Source: an uncultured delta proteobacterium
Lineage (GTDB): Bacteria > Desulfobacterota > Binatia > Bin18
Direction of reading: 5' to 3'
Assembly: GCA_963733195.1 (NCBI GenBank)
Contig: CAVTCR010000080.1
Span: 1 to 14,258, forward strand
Length of the DNA: 14,258 bases
In this document: piece after piece, positions 206-14,258 of the stretch
How the letters are laid out: the number at the start of each line of letters is the position of its first letter
Numbering within the stretch: position 1 is the stretch's first letter
Position numbers and translations under genes: made by a program
Notes under the pieces: generated by a model
Database searches by the model: none
Told to the model about the DNA's origin: nothing
What the model saw: only the letters and a program-made list of their open reading frames with translations

Positions 206-326
206 TTCTGAGCAGCGGAGCGAAGAATCTCTCTAAGAGACCCTTCGCGGAGTTTCTCCTGAGCGTCCTTCGACTTCTGAAGCTCCGCTACGCTCAGGAT
301 GAGCGGAAGCAAAGGGTTCAGGGTGA
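206..326. repeat. Composite/nested CTGAGC...CGAAG / CTTCG...GCTCAGG REP-like repeat cluster
   Basis: Shares the blocks TTCTGAGC..GCGAAGAATC, CTTCGC(g/a)GAGTTT(c/a)TCCTGAGC and TCAGGGT with 5451-5530. Contains an internal CCTTCGAC...CGCTACGCTCAGGA unit also seen at 14127-14164. Confidence 0.8.
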
Positions 327-391
327 TATGATCAAGGGGCCGTTCTCAGGCATCCTGCAAGGAGAAGCCTCTAAATCTCCTTAACCAATCT

Positions 392-928
392 TCATCTACT
401 CCCACTTGCCGCGGCACCACCAGTCTCCGCCTGTTTTCTCATCTTCGAGTCCGATTCGTAGTACCCTTGTGCCAAATACCGGTGTACGCTTCGCCTTCTT
501 CGGCATCCGCCAGGTTGTGACTTTTGCTTTAGTGAGTTCCACTCCTATAAGTGCACGAGGCTGGTCGATGGTTTCGGTGATGTAATAATGTACCGATTGA
601 TCATCGATGTAACGGCGCGAGATGCAACGGTAGGTATCACGCAGTGTCATCCTGACCCGGGACGTGGAGAATCTCTGCTTTCCCTTCACTAACACTTTAC
701 GATAGCGTCCGGCTTCTTCATCAATGGTAATCGCCACACGCGAGTCGCGCTGAATGTTCGCGTAAAAGGTGGAATACTTACGCGGGGCGATGAAGGTCTT
801 GCCGGCCTCACAGATAAACCACACCGGCACGACACTCGGGCGCCGTCGGCGTTGATCGTCTCAATACGGGCGAGGTGTCCGCGTTTCCGTAAAAATTCGT
901 TCATTTCAGCTTTGGTCAATTTCGGCAT
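392..928 (-). CDS. Pyridoxamine 5'-phosphate oxidase-like (PPOX/split beta-barrel, possibly F420-dependent) protein; split by several frameshifts
   Basis: Joined frames give MPKLTKAEMNEFLRKRGHLARIETINADGA / VVPVWF...FIAPRKYSTFYANIQRDSRVAITIDEE..YRKVLVKG / KAEILHVPG / ..YRCISRRY...PRALIGVEL..KVTTWRMP. PVWF and NIxRDxRVAI are typical PPOX motifs. SD GAGGAG lies upstream of the ATG at 928. The 3' end is approximate. Confidence 0.75.
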
Positions 929-1062
929 GTTCTTCTCCTCATTAGAGGCTGGATGCCTGTTTTACCTGGGACACATCAACATTACCATCGCCTGTGCTGT
1001 TCTCGTTATATCCCGTGTGCCATAGTGCGAAGCACTCAAGCTCACAGAAGGAGGAATGCACC

Positions 1063-2163
1063 ATGAAAGCCGCGGTGTTTTACGAAGACAACGCTCTCTG
1101 AAAATCGAAGAGATTGATATTGACAAACCCAAACGCGGAGATGTTCTGGTCAAAATTGCCGCCAGCGGCGTGTGTCATAGTGACCTGTCGGTGATGAACG
1201 GCACCCTGCCCTTTCCTCCTCCACCTGCAGTGCTTGGACACGAAGGCGCTGGTATCGTCGAAGAAGTGGGCGCTGATGTCACCAATGTACAACGCGGGCG
1301 ATCACGTGATTCTCTCCTGGCGTCCTTCGTGCGGGAAAGTGTGGCTACTGTGTCACTGGTCGTCCACAACTCTGCCAAACCGGAAGTATGGCACTCCTGC
1401 AAGGCCACCTGCCCGATGGCACTAGTCGCCTGCATAAGGGCGATACGGAAATCCGCGTCTTTACTGGCGTGGGGTCGTTCGGTGAATATGCCGTTGTTCT
1501 TGAGGCTGGCGTCGTACCGATTCGTTCGGATGTTCCACTTGATGCCGCAGCGCTGGTTTCGGCTGTGGTGTCATGACTGGCGTGGGCGCGGTCATCAACA
1601 CTGCTAAGGTTGAACCAGGTTCAAGTGTGGTGGTGATCGGCTGTGGTGGCGTTGGGCTCAATGTTGTTCAAGGCGCAGTACTCGCGGGAGCAGATAAGAT
1701 CATCGCGGTAGATCTCAACCTAAGAAACTGGCACTCGCCAAGCAATTTGGCGCCACACATACAGTGAATCCTACGGATGGCGATCCGATCACTCAAGTTC
1801 TCGGCCTCACCAATGGATTAGGCGCGGAGTACGCTTTTGAGGTTGTTGGCCGAGCAGACACCGTTGTGCAAGCCTATCATTCGATCTGCCCAGGTGGGAC
1901 TGCTATTGTCGTTGGCGTCGCTAAGCCTGACGACATGGTCATGATACCCGCCCTTTCCCTGCTGCAAGAAAAAACCCTCAAAGGCTCGATCTACGGCTCC
2001 GCCCGTCCGAGTGTCGATATGCTCTTGGTTGCTCGAACTCTACATGAACAAGCGTCTCAAACTCGACGAGTTGGTCTCCCGACGAATCAAGCTGGAACAG
2101 GTGAATGACGCCTTCGAGTGGATGGAAAAAGGCGAAGTGGCGAGAAGCGTGATCATCTACTAG
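1063..2163 (+). CDS. Zn-dependent alcohol dehydrogenase (MDR superfamily, class III-like); about 6 frameshifts
   Basis: ATG at 1063 (MKAAVFYE) follows SD AAGGAGG. Motifs across frames: GVCHSD, GHEGAG, structural-Zn [25 protein letters not shown] (NAD binding), [34 protein letters not shown] then TAG at 2161-2163. Frame changes near 1095, 1292, 1338, 1560, 1722 and 2026. Confidence 0.9.
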
Positions 2164-2866: not shown

Positions 2867-4597
2867 AAAACAGTTTCTGTTGAAAACACCGCCCAAGCAT
2901 ATCTCGAACTGTTACGTGCAATGGGCGTGAAGTATTTCTTTGGGAATGCCGGGACAGATTTTGCCTCGCTGATCGATGGCTTTGCCAAGTTTGCCGCTGA
3001 AGGCAAAACCACACCCTACCCTATACAAGTGCCACACGAGTTCTGCGCTATCAGTATGGCGCATGGCTATCATTTAGTGACAGGCGAGCCGCCGCTTGCC
3101 ATGGTCCATACCACAGTCGGTACGGCTAATGCCCTCTGCGGATTGATCAATGCCGCACGCGCGAACATTCCACTCGTTTTCTCTGCTGGTCGCACACCGA
3201 TAACCGAAGCAGGAAATCATGGCAGTCGCGACTTACTGATCCATTGGGCACAGGAATCGTTCGATCAAGCGGCGATGGTACGTGAGTACGTCAAATGGGA
3301 TTACGAACTCCGCTCGTTCGATCAACTGGAGACAGTCATCCGCCGGGCGTTTTCGATCGCAATGAGCGAACCACGAGGGCCAGTCTATCTCACATTCCCG
3401 CGTGAAGTACTCGCCAAACCTCACTCTGAGTTTACCTATGAGGATGGCCCGGCATTTATGCCGACCACTACCCCTTTTCCAGATCCTGATCGCCTCGCTG
3501 AAGCAGCCGCGCTACTTGCAGAGGCAAAGTATCCGCTGATTATTACGCGGACCTATGGTCGTAACGTGGCAGCAGTTCCAGTCTTAGTAACGCTGGCCGA
3601 ATCATTCGCCTTACCTGTGGTCGAGTATCCGTTTGCTGCGCACGTGAACTTTCCTGCTGGACATCCACTCCATTTAGGGTTTGAACCCGGTACCCTACTT
3701 CCGAAAGCCGATGTCATTGTTGTCATTGATTGTGATGTTCCCTGGGCACCAGCAGTTCACAAAGTGAACCCCGACGCCCGTGTCATCCATATCGGTGTCG
3801 ATCCACTTCACAGCCGTTATCCAGTGTGGGGATTCCCAACCACTCTCGCCATTACCGGAGATTCCGCGGTGGCGGTGTCTCAGCTGACGACGGCTCTGCA
3901 GAAACTTCGCCCCGGACACGAAGGAAAAATCGCCCAACGGTTCGAGCGATTGAAGAAAGAGCACGATATGCAGCGTACGGCCTGGAAACACGAGGCAGAA
4001 GAGAAAGGCCGCGCGCAGATATTAACCTTTGAATGGGTCTCGCACTGTCTCAATCAGCTCAAAGACGACAGTATGATCTTCGTCAACGAATATGATTTGA
4101 GTCTACGTCACATTGAGTTCAACACACCGGGATCGTATCTTGGCTTCTCCCCTGCAGGCGGGCTTGGTTGGGGCGTTGGTGGTGCACTGGGAGTGAAACT
4201 CGGCGCGCCAGACAAAACAGTGATTTCCGTTGTCGGCGATGGCACCTATATTTTTAGCGTTCCTAGCGCGTGTCACATGGTGTCAGCTATGCACAATCTC
4301 CCGATCTTAATCATCATCTGTAACAACGGCGGCTGGAATGCTACGCAGATGGCAACCCGCGGCGTGCATCCACAAGGGTGGGCGGTACGTACAGAAAATT
4401 TTCCCTTCGGGCGTTTTGGCGTCCAACCCGCCTATGAAATGTTTGCACAGGCTTGTGGTGGACATGGTGAAGTTGTCCACACACCACACGAACTCCCTAC
4501 CGCACTGAAGCGCGCACTCAAAGTCGTGCGCGAAGAAAAGCGCCAAGCGTTAATTAACGTCGATTGCGGAAATGTACGCGGGTTTGGGGTGTCGTGA
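2867..4597 (+). CDS. Thiamine diphosphate-dependent enzyme (acetolactate synthase/benzoylformate decarboxylase-like superfamily); start codon not evident
   Basis: KTVSVENTAQAYLELLRAMGVKYFFGNAGTDF; PHE (conserved Glu) ..AISMAHGY; GPVYLTFPREVL; ThDP-binding motif VVGDGTY...ICNNGGW; stop at 4595-4597. The first ~188 aa of the 765-aa track ORF are antisense IS200 sequence. Confidence 0.92.
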   Translation, partial: KTVSVENTAQAYLELLRAMGVKYFFGNAGTDFASLIDGFAKFAAEGKTTPYPIQVPHEFCAISMAHGYHLVTGEPPLAMVHTTVGTANALCGLINAARANIPLVFSAGRTPITEAGNHGSRDLLIHWAQESFDQAAMVREYVKWDYELRSFDQLETVIRRAFSIAMSEPRGPVYLTFPREVLAKPHSEFTYEDGPAFMPTTTPFPDPDRLAEAAALLAEAKYPLIITRTYGRNVAAVPVLVTLAESFALPVVEYPFAAHVNFPAGHPLHLGFEPGTLLPKADVIVVIDCDVPWAPAVHKVNPDARVIHIGVDPLHSRYPVWGFPTTLAITGDSAVAVSQLTTALQKLRPGHEGKIAQRFERLKKEHDMQRTAWKHEAEEKGRAQILTFEWVSHCLNQLKDDSMIFVNEYDLSLRHIEFNTPGSYLGFSPAGGLGWGVGGALGVKLGAPDKTVISVVGDGTYIFSVPSACHMVSAMHNLPILIIICNNGGWNATQMATRGVHPQGWAVRTENFPFGRFGVQPAYEMFAQACGGHGEVVHTPHELPTALKRALKVVREEKRQALINVDCGNVRGFGVS

Positions 4598-4613
4598 CCG
4601 CAACCAGTAATGT

Positions 4614-4637
4614 CTCTTTTTTTCGACAGAAAAGAGG
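4614..4637. terminator. Possible hairpin/terminator downstream of the ThDP gene
   Basis: CTCTTTT...AAAAGAG inverted repeat just after the stop codon. The stem is AT-rich and weak. Confidence 0.25.
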
Positions 4638-4903
4638 CCTGCGAAAAAACTGATATCTATCTAAAGGTAGAAATGCGACGCCACGAAAGATACTTATCAA
4701 ATTAGTAAATTTTCGTACATCGCCGTTTTCATTTGTCTTTCTTGAAACTCCGGTAAAATCTCACTTCTGGTGACTAATCTGCCGTACGATTTTGGCACAT
4801 CCCTTGCTCACAAACAGACGCTTTTTTTCCTTGACATGTTGCGCTACTCACGCTAGGAGATCACAACTTTCACAGCAACAGCCGGTTGCACGGGAGGAAA
4901 AAC

Positions 4904-5530: not shown

Positions 5531-6713
5531 CAGACCTGATGTGCTCACCTCTTGTAGCCTGATTGAGGCAACCTCGCCCTTCATTTTTTTTCTTACTCAC
5601 TTTTTGTACTTTCGCTGACCGAGTCTGTACCGCTTCCCCTCTCGCCGGTGGCGTAAAAACCCCGCGATCCTGCATCAGCTGAATCTGTCGGTCAATCACC
5701 TCAGTCTTGTATTCCGCATGGTGCATCGGCTTCCGTTTGAGCCATAAATTCTTCGGGTAAATTGGCTTTTCATAGATCAGCGAGATCACTTCGGTTCGTA
5801 GATCCTTCATCCAATTCATCAGCGGGGAACGGGCCCGAAACTCGCGCAGAGCTTCAATGTCGATCACACCACCACAATACGACGAACCTGCACCATAATC
5901 ATGTCGGGCGACGATCAGTCCGCGATAATCGACAATCATTGAGTGACCACCAAAGGTGTCAACCGGTAGGGGCGATTCTGGCAAGAGATAGTATGTTCCG
6001 AGATTGGGCGCGACCATGTAGCAGGTGTTATCTAACGCCCGGGCACGGTTCTGAATCTCCCACGCACCGTTGCTCACATGCGGTTCTGGATACGCTGGTC
6101 GGCAAATAACCTCGGCTCCATTCATGGCCAGGCCACGAATGAGCTCTGGATACGACCCTTCATTGGCCATGCAGATGCCGATCTTGCCGATGTCAGTATC
6201 GGCGACAGGAAAGAAGGCATTCAGCGAGCGTCCATGAATTTCGATCCACTTGTCCCATACATCGTGCGGACACACAGAATGTTCTACAGGAAAGAGCGGA
6301 GAGTTTTTTCGATGGCGAAGGATGACCTTTCCCTGTGGGGAGATCATAAATACATTGTTAAAAAATAATCCAGGAAATTCTGGTTCACGCGATTTCGCTG
6401 TCGCTACCACGTAGGCATTGAACTCCTTGGCGAGCTTTCCGAGCATGTCGGTTTCGGGGCCAGGAATATCGATGGCAATCTCCTCGGCATACTTTTCGTG
6501 ATCCCAGTCAAATACCTCATCGGTAAATCCCTGTAAGGCTCCTTCTGGAATCACAATAAGTCGTACTGGAAGGGCCAAGCTAGAGAGCCAACATGCTCCA
6601 GCACACACTTCGTGAAGATGTTCGATGTTGGTTTTAATCTGCTGGCGCTTTAATACTCCGCGTACTGTCGGCGAAATGCCCACGGCGGTGTATGCTTCGA
6701 TTGCCTTTGCCAT
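5451..6713 (-). CDS. Nitrilase/carbon-nitrogen hydrolase superfamily protein (uncharacterised subgroup); true stop probably near 5581
   Basis: LIVIPEGALQGF (Glu), FNNVFMISPQGKVILRHRK (Lys), IGICMANEGSYPELIRGLAMNGAEV, NRARALDNTCY, GHSMIVDYRG. SD GGAGG upstream of 6713. The last ~40 aa read into the REP cluster after an A8 run; one extra A would give KKKK-stop at 5581-5583. Confidence 0.9.
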   Translation of the reverse strand: MAKAIEAYTAVGISPTVRGVLKRQQIKTNIEHLHEVCAGACWLSSLALPVRLIVIPEGALQGFTDEVFDWDHEKYAEEIAIDIPGPETDMLGKLAKEFNAYVVATAKSREPEFPGLFFNNVFMISPQGKVILRHRKNSPLFPVEHSVCPHDVWDKWIEIHGRSLNAFFPVADTDIGKIGICMANEGSYPELIRGLAMNGAEVICRPAYPEPHVSNGAWEIQNRARALDNTCYMVAPNLGTYYLLPESPLPVDTFGGHSMIVDYRGLIVARHDYGAGSSYCGGVIDIEALREFRARSPLMNWMKDLRTEVISLIYEKPIYPKNLWLKRKPMHHAEYKTEVIDRQIQLMQDRGVFTPPARGEAVQTRSAKVQKVSKKKNEGRGCLNQATRGEHIRSVTLSPLRQAQDKLCEAKSKDSSLRSE

Positions 6714-6829
6714 GCCCCCTCCTATCTGGCGAATGAAATCGCGGCGGACGATAGCACGCGCGAGGGGGGGAAGAAAGGCGCAGGCAAAGTCGCTATAAGA
6801 CTCAAGAAAAGTTTTCTATTGTAGGTGTG

Positions 6830-6968
6830 ACCGTTCATCTTTCGACTTCGCCGCTAGTGCGGCCGCGCTCAGGACGAACGGTAGTTCAACATATGCACTG
6901 AAGAGAACTCCGCTATAGCATGGGCTGAGGTTTGCTATGATGTGCTTCGACAAGCTCAGCGCAAACGG
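6830..6968. repeat. Two CTTCGAC...GCTCAG..AACGG REP-like units in the divergent intergenic region
   Basis: 6830-6882 reads ACCGTTC..TTTCGACTTCGCCGCTAGTGCGGCCGCGCTCAGGACGAACGGT, and 6945-6968 reads CTTCGACAAGCTCAGCGCAAACGG. Confidence 0.75.
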
Positions 6969-7035
6969 ACTTCCCTCTACCTCATCGCTGACTGAGTCTC
7001 CTAGAACTTATTGAAGAACGAGAAGAGTTTTCACT

Positions 7036-8514
7036 ATGACGCAGGCGTTACATCAGACAGAAACTCAGACGGCCACAAGCTCCCGTTTACCAGTGGTTGC
7101 GATTGTTGGCCGACCGAATGCCGGAAAGTCAACCTTGTTTAATCGGCTGCTTCGTCAACGCAAAGCCGTGGTTGATAACACACCAGGCGTCACTCGCGAC
7201 CGCAATTTTGCTCAAGCTGTGTGGCAGGGGCAACCGGTGCTTCTGGTTGATACCGGAGGACTCGATTTTCAGGATACCGATGGACTGAACTCTCGGGTTC
7301 AGGAACAAACGCGCCTCGCCATGAGCGAAGCAGATGTGATTATTTTTCTTTTCGATGGTCGCGAAGGGCTCAACCCAGCGGACGCAGAGGCGGTCGATCT
7401 TCTCCGCCGCACTGACAAGCCAACATTTTTTGCTGTTAACAAGATTGATGGAGACAAACAGGAAGCAGCCGCCACAGAGTTTTTTGCATTGGGGCTTGAT
7501 CCACTCTACACGATCTCTTCTGCCCACGGTCGCGGCGTCAGTGATCTCATGGAGGCAGTCGCCGAAACCTGGAGTCAGAAGGATTCAAGCACCAAACTTC
7601 GAGCTTCAAGCTTCGAGCCTGAACTCTCCAGCCCCCAGCCCTCAACACCCAACACCCCATTACACGTCGCTATTGTTGGCCGCCCGAATGTTGGTAAGTC
7701 GTCCCTCCTCAATCGCTTGGTCGGCTTTGAGCGGTCGATCGTCGATTCTACTCCCGGCACCACACGAGATGCAGTTGATAGCCTCATCGAATGGGACGGT
7801 AAACAGATTGTGCTGGTCGATACGGCTGGAGCACGGCGGAAGGCCAAGGTTTACGAGCGGATCGAACAGGCGAGTGTGTTCATTGCATTGAAAGCGCTCG
7901 AACGGGCGGAGATCGGGCTGTTGGTCATCGATGCAGTCGAGGGCATGACCGACCAAGAGGCACGCCTCGCCCGTTACGCCTGGGATCGCGGGCGGGCGTT
8001 GATACTGGTCGTCAACAAATGGGATGCTGTCCCTGCCGAACGAAAGAATCAAGCGCGCTACTTGCAGAATCTTCACGATACGATCCCTATTACAAACTCC
8101 CTCCCTGTGGTGTTCCTTTCAGCGCTGACAGGCTCCCGACTGAGCAAACTGCTCCCTGTCGTCATGCAGGTCGCACAAGCCCATGCGCTGCAACTGCCGA
8201 CGACACAGCTCAATCGTAGCTTTCAGGAATGGACCAGACGCACCCCACCACCAAGCTTCAAGGGCAAACAACCAAAGATTTTTTATGTCACCCAAGTCGC
8301 AACCAAACCACCGCAGTTTGTGCTGTTCACCGGCGTACCAGAAGGAATCACCCCAGCCTACGAGCGCTATCTCGAGAATCAGTTGCGAGCGACGTTTGAT
8401 TTACTCGGTACTCCGGTGAAGTTGAATTTTCGCGCACGGAGAAAAGACGAAGAGGTCCACATCAATGACGACGAGAGAACGCGCAACAATAAACGGAGAA
8501 CGAGAACCGCATAG
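7036..8514 (+). CDS. der: Ribosome biogenesis GTPase Der (EngA)
   Basis: Two tandem GTPase domains: GRPNAGKSTLFN/PGVTRDR/DTGG/NKID and GRPNVGKSSLLN/PGTTRD/DTAG/NKWD. C-terminal KH-like domain KIFYVTQ..KPPQF..YERYLENQLR..GTPV. Confidence 0.98.
   Translation: MTQALHQTETQTATSSRLPVVAIVGRPNAGKSTLFNRLLRQRKAVVDNTPGVTRDRNFAQAVWQGQPVLLVDTGGLDFQDTDGLNSRVQEQTRLAMSEADVIIFLFDGREGLNPADAEAVDLLRRTDKPTFFAVNKIDGDKQEAAATEFFALGLDPLYTISSAHGRGVSDLMEAVAETWSQKDSSTKLRASSFEPELSSPQPSTPNTPLHVAIVGRPNVGKSSLLNRLVGFERSIVDSTPGTTRDAVDSLIEWDGKQIVLVDTAGARRKAKVYERIEQASVFIALKALERAEIGLLVIDAVEGMTDQEARLARYAWDRGRALILVVNKWDAVPAERKNQARYLQNLHDTIPITNSLPVVFLSALTGSRLSKLLPVVMQVAQAHALQLPTTQLNRSFQEWTRRTPPPSFKGKQPKIFYVTQVATKPPQFVLFTGVPEGITPAYERYLENQLRATFDLLGTPVKLNFRARRKDEEVHINDDERTRNNKRRTRTA
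7584..7660 (+). repeat. Degenerate 7-nt tandem repeat tract inside the der inter-domain linker
   Basis: ttcaagc accaaac ttcgagc ttcaagc ttcgagc ctgaact ctccagc ccccagc cctcaac acccaac accccat (11 units, period 7). Confidence 0.7.
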
Positions 8515-8666
8515 ATTGTTTTCCGGTCAGTATTCCTCACTCGTTGAGACAGAAACTTCAACAAACATGTGAACAAATGGAAATCCAGTAACCAGCGTAT
8601 GCGCCGGTCAATCAGGTTGCGGTTTCCCAGAGCCGCTGCGGCTTCCTGTTTCCAGATACCGAAACA

Positions 8667-9788
8667 TCACCTTACGCGATAAGGGCGAAAAAGGGGTAAA
8701 CTTGCCGGTATGAAACAACAACCGATAGCCGATTTGTATTCCGATTACTTGCTGGCGTCGTTTGGAGCAACCACGGCGACGGGGCTGAGCGAACTGCTGG
8801 AGGGGGAACTCAGCCACGATCAAGTGAGCCGATACTTGGCGGGCCCGAAGAAAACCGCGAGCGATCTGTGGCGGACCGTCAAGTCGTTTGTCCGGGAGGT
8901 CCAATCTGAGCAAGGGGTGTTGATCATTGACGACTCGATCGAGGAGAAGCCGTATACCGACGAGAACGATATTGTCTGTTGGCACTACGACCACTCTAAA
9001 GACCGGATGCTCAAAGGAATCAACTTCCTGACGGCCTTGTATCACAGCCAAGGCGTGAGTGTTCCCGTGGGCTTCCACTTGGTGGCCAAGACGGAGAAGT
9101 ATACCGACCCCAAGACGCAGAAAGAGAAGCGGCGCAGTCCGGTGTCCAAGAATGAGGTGTGTCGGGCGCTGATCAAACAGGCGGTGACCAACCGGATTCC
9201 CTTTCGCTGTGTCCTCTTTGATGTGTGGTTCGCCTCGGCGGAAAATATGGTCTTTCTCAAACAGCAACAGCACCGCGACTTTATTTGTCCCCTGAAGGCC
9301 AATCGCAAAGTTGCCTTGAGTCAGGCCGACAAGCAGCAGGGCCGGTATGTCAGAGTGGACACCCTGGAGCTGGAGGCGCAGGCCACACGGGAAATCTATC
9401 TGGAAGGAGTCGACTTCCCGCTCATCCTGGTGAAACAAGTCTTCACAAACGAAGATGGCAGTATTGGCCTTCGCTATCTGGTCTCCAGTGAGACCACCTT
9501 GTCGTTTGACGACGTGACCACGACCTATCACACACGGTGGGGAGTGGAATGTTATCATAAGTCGCTCAAACAGAACGTCTCGTTGGCCAAGTCCCCCACC
9601 CAAACGGTGACGACGCAAACCAATCACTTCTTTGCCGCGCTGTGTGGCTTTCTCAAATTGGAGCGGTTGAAAGGGAAAACCAAGTTGAATCATTTTGCGT
9701 TAAAATCGAAACTCTATCTCAAGGCTCTGCACGCGGCGTTCTCTACCTTGCGTACGTTAACGCCTGTTCCAGTCACTGCGTAAGGTGA
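8667..9788 (+). mobile_element. IS701-like (IS4 superfamily, DDE) insertion sequence
   Basis: Perfect 11-bp terminal inverted repeats, TCACCTTACGC (8667-8677) and GCGTAAGGTGA (9778-9788), enclose a single transposase ORF whose stop lies inside the right IR. No flanking direct repeat is seen. Confidence 0.88.
8710..9783 (+). CDS. DDE transposase, IS701-like
   Basis: SHDQVSRYL; LIIDDSIEEKPY (D1); VLFDVWFAS (D2); YHTRWGVECYHKSLKQ (YREK-type motif with catalytic E). Intact, 357 aa. Confidence 0.93.
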   Translation: MKQQPIADLYSDYLLASFGATTATGLSELLEGELSHDQVSRYLAGPKKTASDLWRTVKSFVREVQSEQGVLIIDDSIEEKPYTDENDIVCWHYDHSKDRMLKGINFLTALYHSQGVSVPVGFHLVAKTEKYTDPKTQKEKRRSPVSKNEVCRALIKQAVTNRIPFRCVLFDVWFASAENMVFLKQQQHRDFICPLKANRKVALSQADKQQGRYVRVDTLELEAQATREIYLEGVDFPLILVKQVFTNEDGSIGLRYLVSSETTLSFDDVTTTYHTRWGVECYHKSLKQNVSLAKSPTQTVTTQTNHFFAALCGFLKLERLKGKTKLNHFALKSKLYLKALHAAFSTLRTLTPVPVTA

Positions 9789-9886
9789 GTTCTTGATTCG
9801 ACATGCGGTCCAGCTTGCACACCTTATGTGTGAATGAGTATATTCAGCAGACTTGTGTTGAGTTTTGGACTACGCTACCAGAAGCC

Positions 9887-10606
9887 ATGAGCGACGATAC
9901 AAAATTGCTCGATGTCGAGGATGTCACCAAGCAACAAGCTCTGCCTGCTGGTGGATTCTCTTCTTGGCTCCGTCGCACGCGGAACGCGCAGGTAGAAAAA
10001 GACAGCATCAACGTGCCATGCGGCGAGTGCAACGCTTGCTGTAGGTCGTCTTACTTCATCCACATCGGACCAGAAGAATCCCAAACCCTTAGCCGGATAC
10101 CGAATGAACTTTTGTTCCCCGCACCGGGGCTGCCCAAGGGTAATGTTCTATTGGGTTACGACGAAAAAGGACGCTGCCCCATGCTGGTGGACGACAAATG
10201 TTCGATCTATGAGCATCGGCCACAAACCTGCCGCACCTACGATTGTCGAGTATTCCCCGCCGCCGGAATTGAGGCAGGCAGTGACGATAAAGAACTGATC
10301 AATCGGCGCATACTTCGTTGGAAATTCAGTTACCCCGCGCAGATCGATCGCAAAGAGCATTCCGCGGTACAAGCTGCCGCAACGTTTCTACGAGAGCACG
10401 CTGATTGCTTCCCCGAGGGAGTAGTGCCGAGCAACCCTACGCAGTTGGCTATTCTTGCGATCAAAGTGTACGAGGTGTTCGTCAGTTACTCAGACGCGTC
10501 TGATGGCTCTAGCCGGGCACCTACAGATCTCGAAGTCGCCAAAGCAGTAATAGAGAAAAAGAGACAGTTCGAGGCTAGGCGTCCAAGAAAGCCTCACATC
10601 GCCTAG
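9887..10606 (+). CDS. YkgJ-family cysteine-cluster (CxxCxxCC; putative Zn/Fe-S) protein
   Basis: VPCGECNACC...GRCPML...KCSIYEHRPQTCRTYDCR is the characteristic YkgJ/CxxCxxCC pattern. Start at MSDD (9887) is preferred over 9803. Confidence 0.85.
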   Translation: MSDDTKLLDVEDVTKQQALPAGGFSSWLRRTRNAQVEKDSINVPCGECNACCRSSYFIHIGPEESQTLSRIPNELLFPAPGLPKGNVLLGYDEKGRCPMLVDDKCSIYEHRPQTCRTYDCRVFPAAGIEAGSDDKELINRRILRWKFSYPAQIDRKEHSAVQAAATFLREHADCFPEGVVPSNPTQLAILAIKVYEVFVSYSDASDGSSRAPTDLEVAKAVIEKKRQFEARRPRKPHIA

Positions 10607-10644: not shown

Positions 10645-11076
10645 GTGCCCGTGCTGTTCGACATTCGAGGCACACAATGGGTGCGCGGCCTTAGTGCCCC
10701 TGTGGCAGACCACACCCTCTACATTGTCCGAATTACCGGTGCCGAAGTGATCGCTGCCCTGACCCGACGTACCCGGACGGGAAGTCTCACGCAAAGCGCA
10801 GCGCAGAATCCCATGGCCGCGTTTCGTAGCGACTTCGGCGGTTCCTACCTCATTTCTGAGTTGACCCCGGCACTCGTTGAACGCACGATGGACTTAGCGC
10901 AAAGATATGGACTCCGCGGCTACGACGCCGTACAACTTACCGCATCCCTAGATGTGAACACCGAACGGCGCGGATACGGACTTGCTCCGCTCACACTGGT
11001 CTCAGCAGACACAGATCTCAATCAAGCGGCGATAGTAGAGGTGTTAGCTATTGAAAATCCCAACGACAACCCGTGA
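10645..11076 (+). pseudogene. vapC: 5'-truncated PIN-domain (VapC-type) toxin
   Basis: GTQWVRGL...ITGAEVIAALTRR...AQRYGLRGYDAVQLTASL...LVSADTDLNQAAIVEVLAIENPN matches PIN/VapC proteins. The usual N-terminal (Y/F)xDxSALxKxY segment and an upstream antitoxin gene are missing. Confidence 0.75.
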
Positions 11077-11597: not shown

Positions 11598-12689
11598 ATG
11601 GCTGAAACTGTTCCAGAGATTCGTCTCGCCTTATTCGGACGCAGCGGATCGGGTAAGACTACGCTATTGTCAAGTTACTATGGGAACCAGCAAAGGAACA
11701 GCTTTGAGGAGTCACATGGCTATCGCCTTGAAGCTGAAAACACTTCAGACGGCAATCAACTTCTCAGCCGCTACTACCAAATGGAGAAATCAGGGAGTTT
11801 TCCTTTAGGAACCGAGTTGTTTTCAGAATATGGCTTTGCATTTAAAGTACACGGTCTAGCCAGTCCGAGCCTTCGCATCGTGTGGTACGATTATCCCGGT
11901 GGCTGGTGGGAGAGGGAACCTCGTGATGCTGAAGAGCGTAATGCGCGAAAGCAAGCGCTCGCGAAATTACTGGCCAGTCATGTTGGTATCCTCTTGGTAG
12001 ATGGATCAACGTATCTCAGCGATGGTCTGCCATACGTTCGACAGCTCTTTGACCAGTTCCGTAACGAAGCACGCAAGATCGCAGATGAATTTGCTCCAGC
12101 GGGACAACCCTTGGATGCTCTACCACAGCAGTGGCTCATCGCGGTCTCCAAAGCAGACGTGCTGCCCAATGGGACGACTGCTGAAGCTGTCTGCAAAGAC
12201 ATTGTTGCTGGCGCGAATGATCAACTCGCCGGCGTTGCACGGGTGTTCAATCCTCGCGCATTCGGTTCACAGTATTTGCTGCTTTCCTCAGTCCGTGGTG
12301 ACGGCAATCGAGTCTTGGACGCGCATGCGTACGTTGGGCTTCCACTCATTGCGCCCATAGCGCTACTTTCCATCCTTGATGAACTCGCAAAGAAGTCGAG
12401 CAAAGGGCAAGGATATGGGACTCTACGTGCAATCTTAGAACGCTTGGCTGCTTTGGCTTCCCTCATTGATCGACTCGATGATCTTCTGCCGCCAAAGTAT
12501 CAACTCCTAACGCAGTTATTAAAGGCATTAGCTCTAAAGGAGGGGCTCGATAAAGGTGTAGATTACTTCCGAGACAAACAGCAGCGGGCGGCTGAAAAGG
12601 GACAGCATTTGGAAGCCGCTGTAGCGGCCATGAAGGCTGAACTCTCGAACGAGGATGCGCAGCGGGCATATTTCCGAAATCAAGGTTGA
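11598..12689 (+). CDS. P-loop (TRAFAC-like) GTPase-domain protein with helical C-terminal extension
   Basis: G1 LALFGRSGSGKTT, putative G2 FPLGT, G3 WYDYPGG, G4 AVSKAD, G5-like LLSSV. The C-terminal ~90 aa are amphipathic/coiled-coil-like. G-rich SD upstream of the ATG. Confidence 0.85.
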   Translation: MAETVPEIRLALFGRSGSGKTTLLSSYYGNQQRNSFEESHGYRLEAENTSDGNQLLSRYYQMEKSGSFPLGTELFSEYGFAFKVHGLASPSLRIVWYDYPGGWWEREPRDAEERNARKQALAKLLASHVGILLVDGSTYLSDGLPYVRQLFDQFRNEARKIADEFAPAGQPLDALPQQWLIAVSKADVLPNGTTAEAVCKDIVAGANDQLAGVARVFNPRAFGSQYLLLSSVRGDGNRVLDAHAYVGLPLIAPIALLSILDELAKKSSKGQGYGTLRAILERLAALASLIDRLDDLLPPKYQLLTQLLKALALKEGLDKGVDYFRDKQQRAAEKGQHLEAAVAAMKAELSNEDAQRAYFRNQG

Positions 12690-12706
12690 GTACAACGAGG
12701 ACAGCT

Positions 12707-13788
12707 ATGAGCGAGGATTCGAGCCCCGTTCGAGTGCAGCTAAAGCTTGAGCATCTCTTGTGGCGTACTCGTGGTCGTCACTGGGATTATTTGTTCCTAG
12801 TTGAGCCACATGCTCGGTACGGTCAGGGTTGGTACTCGCTGCACAAGGAAGTCTTCGCAGATTCAGAGCCCCGTCCAGAAGGTGAGCGTTACGTTCTTGG
12901 TGAACTGCTTGACGAGCAAAGTCGGCAACGCATGGTGTTCGTGGGCACCGTCTTTCTAGATGATCACCGGAGAGATGCATTCGGTCGCCCAATTGCACAC
13001 TATATGGTGTGGTTGCGCCCAGATAAAGACCATACGAAGTGAAGAAGAGCATTCCTCAAGACTGGGGTCATGCGGTGCTAAGCCGCGTAGGGTATGCTTT
13101 AGATACCGACGATGTCTTCAACGCTGTCAGTGATGATTATAGCGAAATCCGACGTGCTTTCGAGCGTGCACTCACTGCGACCAATTGGACGATAGAACTT
13201 GAAGGGCCTAATGTAGATCCCACTGAGTACCGGGACGTCGGAGTGATAAGAAAAAAACCAAGAGACATTGTCAACTCGGCTTCTAGTCCACCCTCTGGAG
13301 ATCCTGAACGGTATTTTGTTCATAGCTCTATAGTCCTAAATCTGGTGTTGCTTCCAGCGAGAGAGATTGGGAAGCGAAGTAAATCGTGCCATTACCCAAG
13401 GTGAAGCATGGGCGCTACTCCAGGACCAGGGATCGTTAGCACAAATATTTCCGACTCCGGCGTTGTTGCGGCAGAAGATAAATAATATGGATCATGGCGA
13501 GGTTTTGAGCCGACTCAGAGATTCATTTAGTGGTACCTGGATGATAAATTCATCCAGTCCCAGGCCGAGTTTCTGATAGAACGTGTAATGAAGAGACGAC
13601 TTCCAAAACGATCCAAAGGATTCGACGCAATTATTGATACTTTTGTACAGCATGGCCAGCATACAGTGCTTAGTAAAGTAGCGCCTGATGAGGCACATGC
13701 AAAACTAGCAAAGCAGATCGAGTCATGGGGCGGCAAAGGACGATCTCTTTATTCACAATGTATACGTTCGTCTTTGCAAACAGGCTGA
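12707..13788 (+). CDS. Hypothetical GTPase-associated protein, probably one gene split by about 3 frameshifts
   Basis: SD GAGGA, then ATG at 12707 (alternative TTG at 12686 overlaps the GTPase stop). Consecutive overlapping frames: LLWRTRGRHWDYLFL...RRDAFGRPIAHYMVWL (to ~13035), EVKKSIPQDWGHAVL... (to ~13370), GSEVNRAITQGEAW... (to ~13530), WYLDDKFIQSQAEFLIERVMKRR...SLQTG-stop at 13788. Confidence 0.6.
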
Positions 13789-14054
13789 AAATCAATCGCC
13801 CCCTGAAGACGCATCTAATATCAACGCAGATCAAGAGGACAGAGACAACTCCTGAGCGACCGAAAGTCGGAGTTGTGGGAGCAGGTTTTGAGTCATGAGT
13901 GGAGTTAGTGTCGTCATGGTCTCAGACTTGCCTCACATGCGCCATCTTTTCTCTTGTAGCAATATCTAGCCATAAAACATAACTGCCAGTGGTTACGTGC
14001 GCAATCGGACCACACGATATTGGCGCACTGCCGACCACAACCACTCATGCAGAG

Positions 14055-14164
14055 CCTTTCGACTGTGCTCAGGATAGACTACGCGTACAAGGCGAAAGCG
14101 AAGCACGCGAAGGCCCTGATGTACCGCCCTTCGACTCCGCTGCGCTACGCTCAGGACGAACGGG
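14055..14164. repeat. Two CTTCGAC...GCTCAGGA REP-like units
   Basis: CCTTTCGACTGTGCTCAGGATAG (14055-14077) and CCCTTCGACTCCGCTGCGCTACGCTCAGGACGAACGGG (14127-14164), the same family as at 267-300 and 6840-6882. Confidence 0.78.
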
Positions 14165-14258
14165 ACACTGCTCCACTACAAATGAGGACGGGTGCGAATC
14201 TTCTGTGGTCCGATTTAGTCCACTTTATCACCGTCTCCGTCGAGACCGTGGCCCGATC

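Follow-up and report, generated by a model that had tools for sequence, protein, structure and literature searches.

An apparent two-gene branch of the DO-GTPase/GAP1 kind, pairing a single GTPase with a partner whose head has a predicted TagF/longin-like fold

The DO-GTPase/GAP1 systems (PF19975, PF19993, PF20012, PF20013 and PF20014) are known from computation only, and are large, multi-component and hard to test. As described in the defining article (Kaur, Burroughs, Iyer and Aravind, 2020, eLife, PMC7159879), DO-GTPases are TRAFAC GTPases with a conserved Walker B glutamate; two paralogous GTPase genes are found in 38% of the systems, an N-terminal zinc ribbon in 60% and a transmembrane (TM) segment in 13%, and behind the GTPase genes come GAP1 genes, with C-termini that bear TM segments or domains of variable kind, among them an effector called FGS. 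Here we examine a gene pair of closely similar kind, a GTPase gene and the partner gene directly behind it, on a contig of an uncultured delta proteobacterium (GCA_963733195.1, CAVTCR010000080.1). The window, as we call the whole stretch analysed, is the complete contig of 14,258 bases, and its source genome (G000) comprises 6.9 Mb in 87 contigs. Two further groups of proteins enter the comparison. TagF (PA0076, ACIAD2683; TagF_N, PF09867) is an accessory repressor of the T6SS (type VI secretion system), and its S-x-D-x-x-x-R-x-x-P loop (S79, D81, R85 and P88) is needed both to bind Fha and to repress secretion; no GTPase is known as a target of TagF, and the word GTPase occurs 0 times in the study concerned (PMC5995506). 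Longin and Roadblock domains (MglB, FLCN-FNIP, GATOR1 Nprl2/3, DENN, TRAPP) are platforms for GTPases, according to PMC3521125.

On balance we consider it rather probable that the pair in the window is a single representative of a two-gene branch of the DO-GTPase/GAP1 type that spreads horizontally as a self-contained unit, made of one GTPase and a partner with a TagF/longin-like head, and that the breaks in this copy of the partner gene are probably assembly errors. Judged by sequence comparison, the pair appears to be a real, conserved two-gene branch of the DO-GTPase/GAP1 kind. A sequence-only reading of this DNA had singled out the GTPase as a 363-amino-acid (aa) open reading frame (ORF) carrying GRSGSGKTT, FPLGT, DYPGG, SKAD and LLSSV, and all of these elements were found, with core residues invariant in an alignment of 29 family members:

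11598..12689, + strand: TRAFAC GTPase, DO-GTPase2-like, 363 aa, ATG start, intact (ORF, Pfam match, AlphaFold2 model)
11634..11663, + strand: G1 or P-loop, FGRSGSGKTT, aa 13-22 (GRSGSGKTT, aa 14-22); F13, G14, G19 and K20 invariant, n = 29
11799..11813, + strand: G2 or switch I, FPLGT, aa 68-72; T72 invariant, n = 29
11889..11903, + strand: G3 or Walker B, DYPGG, aa 98-102; D98, Y99, P100, G101, W103 and W104 invariant, n = 29
12147..12158, + strand: G4, SKAD, aa 184-187; K185 and D187 invariant, S184 at least 90% conserved, n = 29
12279..12293, + strand: G5-like, LLSSV, aa 228-232, read from sequence; L228 at least 90% conserved, n = 29

Because these residues are invariant in the 29 relatives, the motifs are marks of the family and chance is ruled out. 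Relatives of the GTPase were sampled in two ways: in a search of 5.8 billion proteins, 113 of the 8,000 candidates scored had E values of 1e-3 or less, nearly all of them 355-400 aa long; and when 185,579 species, each represented by one genome, were scanned with a pattern, 368 stretches matched, 312 of which encode a relative. The best 80 loci were kept (numbered with L below). The kinship with double-GTPase systems that had been proposed from the letters finds support in Pfam comparison, in which the best match of the window's GTPase is DO-GTPase2 (E 4.7e-5; 23.6 bits, where the cut-off is 27; aa 10-209, covering 189 of 226 profile positions). That model is matched at E <= 1e-3 by 27 of the 29 family members (best 1e-13), and DO-GTPase1 by 7 of them; these matches support placing the window's GTPase in the DO-GTPase2 neighbourhood. 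Searches with the GTPase profile against PDB sequences returned P-loop-level matches only, and NCBIfam gave no meaningful match.

The AlphaFold2 model of the GTPase (predicted local distance difference test score, pLDDT, 85.0; predicted template-modelling score 0.86) shows a G domain at about aa 1-245, followed by a helical C-terminal region of about 110 aa (about aa 248-357). Foldseek relates it to generic TRAFAC GTPases (EF-Tu, Gtr1, atlastin, GBP, GIMAP7 and YcjX). Since the P-loop begins at residue 14, there is no space for a zinc ribbon before it, and an N-terminal TM segment is lacking; no longer GTPase forms (>636 aa) were found, which is weak evidence. Residues 242-262 are conserved and moderately hydrophobic (Kyte-Doolittle 1.6-2.0 in most members), with G247 and P253 invariant. 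The residue behind the G3 glycine is glutamate at 55 of the 80 loci, glycine at 23 (the window's clade), and serine and arginine at one each. As a side observation, two 151-nucleotide (nt) contigs from a metatranscriptome run on soil (X8) map to the GTPase gene at 12062-12212 and 12397-12543, with 4 and 3 differing letters; they give only a hint that the gene of a close relative is transcribed, as DNA may be present in such libraries.

The second piece of evidence is the strictness of the pairing. That the GTPase is followed by another gene within 20 nt had been noticed from the sequence and is correct: the partner may start at ATG 12707, 18 nt past the GTPase stop, or at TTG 12686, which gives a 4-nt overlap with the stop, an arrangement also present in L002, the closest relative. 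Partners elsewhere were found by tblastn with the window's first partner piece, which lies directly behind the GTPase in 33 of the 80 loci, and then with a hidden Markov model (HMM) built from the partners so found. With the HMM, the partner head stands beside the GTPase in 78 of 80 loci, the two misses having 0 and 53 nt of DNA behind the GTPase; consistent pairing, proposed as a check of the original idea, was therefore seen wherever enough downstream DNA was available. Among the 78 loci with flanking DNA the partner lies downstream of the GTPase in 77 and upstream in one (L023), and a 4-nt overlap of the partner start with the GTPase stop occurs in 36 of the 74 loci with an assignable start. 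Within 6 kb, 79 of the 80 loci have one GTPase ORF of the family; the exception, L065, has a second module. The 148 flanking ORFs of 42 loci matched 117 Pfam families, each at most three times, and no cluster besides the pair was common to different clades; FN3 and GASH are not among the 25 families listed of these 117. The strict pairing, the lack of another conserved gene and the single GTPase together make the module a self-contained pair with one GTPase. The loci with the pair come from Actinomycetota (most of them), Myxococcota, Planctomycetota, Verrucomicrobiota/Lentisphaerota, Cyanobacteria, Desulfobacterota and Gammaproteobacteria, and cultured actinobacterial carriers include Micromonospora, Microbacterium and Agromyces.

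Further observations concern the pair as such. The two module copies of L065, a Kocuria genome, lie about 4.4 kb apart on opposite strands, at 254-1573 (-) and 5977-7487 (+). A protein of 514 aa in a protein collection (P0154) was considered as a natural GTPase-partner fusion and dropped, and it is not used as support here: its aa 6-281 align with the GTPase and aa 389-511 with the partner, and aa 282-388 do not align with the GTPase C-terminal region and match neither protein, so that it is most likely a frameshifted or mis-called ORF entering the overlapping partner frame of a high-GC genome. Prediction of a complex between the GTPase and partner residues 1-185 scored 0.00 in both runs, which were made without control pairs, and counts neither for nor against binding. 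Scans of promoters, terminators and repeats gave nothing exceeding shuffled expectation.

The partner has a constant head and a changeable tail. Its first 111 aa in the window contain LLWRTRGRHWDY (aa 17-28) and RRDAFGRPIAH (aa 88-98), with the TRG..W motif at 12761-12790 and RRDAFGRPIAH at 12968-13000; both motifs had been picked out from the letters, and the comparison now gives them weight, since T21, R22, G23, W26, D90, R94 and H98 are each at least 90% conserved among 63 partners, and F50 and D85 are likewise among the nearly invariant residues. On these alignments, W-x-T-R-G-x-x-W and D-x-x-G-R-x-I-x-H appear as nearly invariant marks of the partner family. A profile of the head, searched against 1.84 billion cluster representatives (at 50% identity), found 466 proteins at E <= 1e-3, of which 358 reach 1e-10 and 63 reach 1e-30; the head is nearly always in N-terminal position. 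No Pfam family was found for the head among about 210 members (three sets of 63, 60 and 89 partners); the head thus constitutes a family of at least 466 clusters at 50% identity without a Pfam model.

The tails differ by clade: some partners have none, others have a membrane anchor, to which an outer domain may be added, and those of the window's clade have a soluble helical domain; the variable C-termini expected earlier were seen across both loci and representatives. Partner length over the loci ranges from 106 to 389 aa, with about 106-128 aa in actinobacteria (the head alone); partners of Polyangiales have about 172 aa, and those of the window's clade 335-374 aa. In L002, whose GTPase is 85% identical to that of the window, the partner is a single ORF of 367 aa from ATG (374 from the alternative start), and the partner of L003 has 368 aa. 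A TM-like hydrophobic segment follows the head in 72 of 151 partner representatives; an FGE-sulfatase tail occurs in 2 of 60 long representatives and in L028, and a CarboxypepD_reg tail in one representative. FGE-sulfatase corresponds to the 'FGS' effector of Kaur et al. (PMC7159879). In the individual cases, the L028 partner (3753-4865) has a TM-like segment from aa 182 and then its FGE-sulfatase domain at aa 216-294, and the L038 partner (1034-1951) has a rhodanese domain at aa 206-296. An atlas search with the C-terminal domain of the partner reached scores of 0.75-0.76, which are under any useful level.

For the head, a TagF/longin-like fold is predicted. In the AlphaFold2 model of the L002 partner (pLDDT 86.5) the head spans aa 8-182, followed by a low-confidence linker (187-201) and a helical C-terminal domain (206-356); the conserved head of about 130 residues has the order beta-beta-alpha-beta-beta-beta-alpha. 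The Foldseek comparison that the sequence-only reading had recommended indeed returned TagF as the best structural match in the PDB (Acinetobacter baylyi, 9t0n, E 6e-5, probability 0.98), the sole match below 1e-3. It was followed by Pseudomonas TagF (6iz8_D, probability 0.95; 2qnu_B, 0.80), and by FLCN-FNIP2 (6ulg_N), a Lokiarchaeal longin domain (8yqg), TRAPPII (7u05_D) and GATOR1 (7t3b_B), at 0.54-0.84. TagF and GAP1 were also compared by profile (9 TagF_N and 7 GAP1-N2 sequences; head profiles from 62 and then 209 sequences). The only alignment obtained was local and sets D-x-x-G-R-x-I-x-H over S-x-D-x-x-G-R-x-x-P of TagF and G-x-D-x-x-x-R-x-G-N-x-F-x-H of GAP1-N2, and the D-x-x-G-R loop lies about two thirds along a domain of about 135 residues in all three; the motif that the earlier reading had named for partners of double-GTPase systems is accordingly present at the equivalent place of TagF_N and GAP1-N2 sequences. 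In a language-model search, the head came nearest to short-protein clusters of which 23-66% of the members have GAP1-N2 and 11-41% GAP1-N1, with a top score of 0.90 and 163 shared features, figures that make it a lead only by the tool's own standard.

Measured against the description of the DO-GTPase/GAP1 systems, which are the closest known kind, the module agrees in having a TRAFAC GTPase matched by the DO-GTPase2 model (below the cut-off for the window's own protein), a partner gene directly downstream, a constant N-terminal head with a variable C-terminus that includes TM segments and FGE-sulfatase (FGS), and a patchy spread that takes in actinobacteria, planctomycetes and verrucomicrobia; with GAP1-N2 it shares the D-x-x-(G)-R motif at an equivalent place. 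It differs in having a single GTPase instead of two, without zinc ribbon or N-terminal TM segment, and in lacking, at the examined loci, both the conserved third component (a GASH or FNIII-repeat protein) and the linked variable effector genes. Unlike GAP1, which has three domains (N, M and C), the partner has 106-389 aa and one conserved domain, whereas the GAP1-N2 proteins fetched for comparison sit in open frames of 563-987 aa. Unlike DO-GTPases, the window's clade has a glycine where the Walker B glutamate is presumed. To TagF the partner is linked by the best structural matches, a domain of about 135 residues and the D-x-x-G-R loop, but it has no profile match and is paired with a GTPase instead of T6SS genes. 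With longin/Roadblock platforms it shares the order of secondary structure, Foldseek matches and a gene dedicated to a GTPase partner, but no relation in sequence was found, and the GTPase is not of the Ras/Arf/MglA/Rag type.

Several results speak against this placement. The window's own GTPase scores below the DO-GTPase2 cut-off of Pfam, and has glycine at the site that we assume to be that of the DO-GTPase Walker B glutamate. The GAP1-N1, GAP1-N2, GAP1-M, GAP1-C and TagF_N profiles match 0 of 63, 0 of 60 and 0 of 89 partners (E <= 1 or 1e-3), and the partner profile found nothing at E <= 10 among PDB sequences. Foldseek TM-scores are low, 0.18-0.44 (TagF 0.18-0.34, longin-type 0.2-0.44), so that the fold assignment rests on probability and topology. 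With hhalign, the head scored 13.6 against TagF_N and 13.9 against GAP1-N2, compared with 11.5 for an unrelated control, all at probabilities below 1%, and in global mode nothing aligned. These values are near background, and homology of the head with TagF_N or GAP1-N2 is therefore not shown by sequence; the idea of a GAP1-type partner, with no Pfam match in about 210 members, did not hold at this level. GAP1-N2 was found neither in the source genome nor in any of the four other module-bearing genomes (4/4), and in 0 of the 81 sampled genomes of the class of genome G001; GAP1-N1 occurred in 1 of 121 sampled genomes, as a fragment, and is too rare for a profile. TagF_N has no match in G000. Conversely, the GTPase and head HMMs matched nothing in 16 TagF/GAP1-N2 loci, where only 1.5-kb flanks were covered, so that this result is uninformative.

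The window's copy of the partner gene is interrupted. The sequence-only reading had let the gene extend to 13788; compared with the single ORF of L002, the partner reading switches frame four times and its full-length end is TGA 13853-13855, so that this extent had to be revised. Four ORF pieces lie in two frames:

12686..13042 (TTG 12686 or ATG 12707), + strand: partner piece 1, most of the head and both motifs, 86% identical over 108 aa to L002, ending in TGA 13040-13042
13039..13404, + strand: partner piece 2, in the other frame, corresponding to about aa 112-200 of L002, the last helices and strands of the head and the linker (tblastn 62% over 90 aa)
13367..13576, + strand: partner piece 3, again in the piece-1 frame, where the helical C-terminal domain begins (tblastn 51% over 55 aa)
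13588..13855, + strand: partner piece 4 (ORF 13588-13788) and tail, with a stop shared with L002 (tblastn 56% over 36 aa)

In the DNA alignment with L002, a base is missing between 13031 and 13032; 38 extra nt stand at 13288-13325, after which a base is missing behind 13378; nine extra in-frame bases occupy 13489-13497; a base is missing between 13535 and 13536; and with an extra base at 13721 the reading returns to the frame of piece 1. The frameshifts that had been marked for correction are thus present in the record, and most or all of them are probably assembly errors, so that in the organism itself the partner is probably intact, with a length of about 380 aa. In the source assembly rpoB lies in 3 ORF pieces and rpoC in 4 pieces with an in-frame TGA (C71:133111-141235), and two aminoacyl-tRNA-synthetase paralogues are each spread over at least three ORFs (C31:21084-23237 and C70:111445-113038); secA, gyrA and ileS are whole. 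Within the window a zinc-type alcohol dehydrogenase (1056-2108) is split, with ADH_N in ORF 1056-1607 and ADH_zinc_N in ORF 1764-2108 of the same frame, and between them an ORF of 64 aa (1573-1767) that is read in a different frame; the frame changes thus come in pairs, as they do in the partner. Indel errors seem to be numerous in the assembly and to affect its contigs unequally, and any 'broken gene' in this genome should be read with caution. Sequencing runs were also consulted; none contains more than 0.11 of the words sampled from the stretch, and uncovered parts carry no meaning. A soil-metagenome contig (run X2) covering 13455-13681 (227 nt, 2 other letters) has a G inserted behind 13535, which is the base of L002; another contig, less close to the window and diverging from it after 13020, has a length there that fits the L002 frame by our own count from a loose end.

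The rival view of these breaks, that the partner is a true pseudogene in this strain and the decaying module has left an orphan GTPase and a truncated 111-aa head, is possible but clearly the less favoured one. It would account for what counts against assembly error: four frame changes within 1.15 kb exceed the rate in rpoB/rpoC (about 5 in 7.7 kb), and they stand in a window where the adjacent GTPase and four other genes are whole (whole genes of the window include Der, TPP-enzyme and nitrilase); moreover, L002 as the closest relative has one ORF, GTPase or partner genes are split by frameshifts in three other records (L008, L013 and L022), and the locus lies beside an insertion sequence (IS). 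On the other side, rpoB, rpoC and the two synthetase paralogues are split in the same assembly and cannot be pseudogenes, the alcohol dehydrogenase of the window is split alike, a near-identical metagenome contig is without the break at 13535, and every piece still reads as protein 51-86% identical to L002. It is the split genes of the assembly, together with the split dehydrogenase and the G at 13535 in the soil contig, that lead us to favour artefact over decay. (In the three other records just named, the GTPase lies in two or three ORFs at L008:5935-7093, L013:521-1628 and L022:5902-7457, and the L022 partner is split too.) As to function, the module is accessory: the GTPase is present in 2 of 41 related genomes, one of the two being the source genome itself, and neither of two genomes from its genus (84% and 100% complete) has it, in agreement with the accessory region read from the sequence. 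By analogy, a conflict or defence-like role seems most likely, although it is the weakest step of the argument, taken as it is from mobility and from the kinship with DO-GTPase systems. The neighbours hint to some extent at surroundings that are mobile and rich in defence genes: an IS and a weak PIN match in the window, a DNA methylase at L002, a RES toxin and an RNase T-type exonuclease at L003, and, among the 148 flanking ORFs, matches to GmrSD_C (2), NERD-UvrD (3), HEC-06 (2) and PDC-S48 (2). What tells against such a role is that the flanking genes are mostly ordinary metabolism, transport and housekeeping with few defence genes, that in PADLOC-DB 2.0.0 the GTPase has only P-loop-level matches (mad3, E 0.011; mad8, E 0.02) and the four partner pieces match 0 families, and that neither PADLOC nor the flanking genes yielded anything linking the module to phage or other conflict. 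The defence module proposed from the letters is in this respect not supported.

Another function would be that of a cellular signalling switch, for instance in envelope or membrane sensing, with a membrane-anchored partner that senses the outside and sets the state of the GTPase. We think this rather unlikely, while it fits the TM-like segments of nearly half the partner representatives (72 of 151), the outer FGE-sulfatase, rhodanese and CarboxypepD_reg domains of some, the fact that the pair encodes no nuclease, protease or other toxic effector and has no PADLOC model, and the many housekeeping genes in the flanks (e.g. OpuAC, BacA, HemD and UbiA). What argues against it is the patchy spread (312 stretches in 185,579 species, 2 of 41 relatives, 0 of 2 in the genus), neighbourhoods that are unrelated between loci, and copies that adjoin an IS (window), a DNA methylase (L002) or a RES toxin (L003), with GmrSD, NERD-UvrD, HEC-06 and PDC-S48 nearby; these are traits of mobile accessory genes. 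The same mobile and patchy spread, the toxin-antitoxin (TA) and IS genes among the neighbours and the translational coupling of a small partner to a larger gene would suit a toxin-antitoxin-like couple, in which the GTPase inhibits growth and the small overlapping downstream gene neutralises it. This is improbable, however, as many partners, unlike antitoxins, are large, anchored in the membrane or joined to outer domains, and the partner lies downstream instead of upstream, and a toxin-type domain was not seen in the GTPase. A very improbable reading makes the partner a TagF-type regulator of the T6SS: TagF structures are its best Foldseek matches and its D-x-x-G-R loop resembles the TagF loop, as given in the TagF study, yet Pfam TagF_N matches 0 of about 210 partners and was not found in the source genome, the gene is always paired with the GTPase and not with T6SS genes, and most loci are from Actinomycetota. 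Actinomycetota are not known to have T6SS. T6SS families did not turn up among the window ORFs or the listed neighbour families, in surveys that included no search aimed at T6SS.

If the module is, as we favour, a self-contained two-gene switch of the DO-GTPase/GAP1 type, the partner head would dock on the GTPase through its conserved loops T-R-G..W and D-x-x-G-R-x-I-x-H, in the manner in which longin and Roadblock domains are described to dock on theirs. The tail, which varies from none at all to a TM anchor, an outer domain or a soluble helical domain, could then act as input or localiser, and the helical C-terminal region of the GTPase as output, because the minimal actinobacterial form encodes nothing else. 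Longin-domain GTPase-activating proteins (GAPs) use an arginine finger, and the head may likewise tune GTP hydrolysis, with the invariant R22 or R94 as a finger completing the active site, which would fit a clade without the Walker B glutamate; alternatively, the head may report the state of the variable tail to the GTPase switch. The C-terminal helical effector once proposed for the window's partner has stood in so far as a helical domain is present in the L002-type model, but this domain is found in one small clade only and has no feature by which it could be recognised as an effector. A bolder proposal, which we hold only tentatively and regard as doubtful, is that the head, TagF_N and GAP1-N form one superfamily of longin-like docking domains built around the D-x-x-G-R loop, and that a single GTPase with a head is the minimal ancestral core of the DO-GTPase/GAP1 systems. 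If so, TagF would descend from a GTPase regulator, and the two-gene module would be a stand-alone GTP-gated defence or membrane-stress switch with the helical C-terminal region of the GTPase as output.

The interest of the branch lies in its reduction of such a switch to just a pair of genes, which in actinobacteria encode a GTPase and a partner of about 390 and 115 aa. Since these are two small genes in cultured genera, binding, GAP activity and a phage phenotype are directly testable, and the predicted TagF-like head would suggest that TagF, GAP1 and the longin-type regulators of GTPases may be linked in function. In literature searches on the DO-GTPase families and on TagF together with longin or DENN, this pair was not found described; supplements and most subscription journals were outside their scope, and the branch may be listed in the source data of PMC7159879. 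The window's own copy is ordinary and its record is marred by assembly frameshifts, so that the value of this particular window is smaller.

The remaining features of the window lie on either side of the pair. The reading from the letters had placed the pair after an IS and a broken toxin gene; the IS was confirmed, and the toxin was not, as the ORF in question has a weak PIN match only. The corresponding features are:

8710..9783, + strand: transposase of the IS, DDE_5/DDE_Tnp_1, 357 aa, E 7e-15
8608..9693, antisense to the transposase: ORF of 361 aa
8597..8615 and 10295..10313: 19-nt inverted repeat, 84% complementary, whose arms would flank the transposase together with the first part of the ORF behind it
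9803..10606: 267-aa protein with a CxxCxxCC zinc/iron-chelating domain, E 5e-8
10645..11076: 143-aa ORF, weak PIN match only, E 0.044, profile positions 29-118 of 120
13989..14258 (the last 270 bases): 22-nt inverted repeat at 14003-14024 and 14194-14215, 82% complementary; also two open frames that overlap each other and are cut off by the contig end

The repeat at the end of the contig may mark where the assembly stopped.

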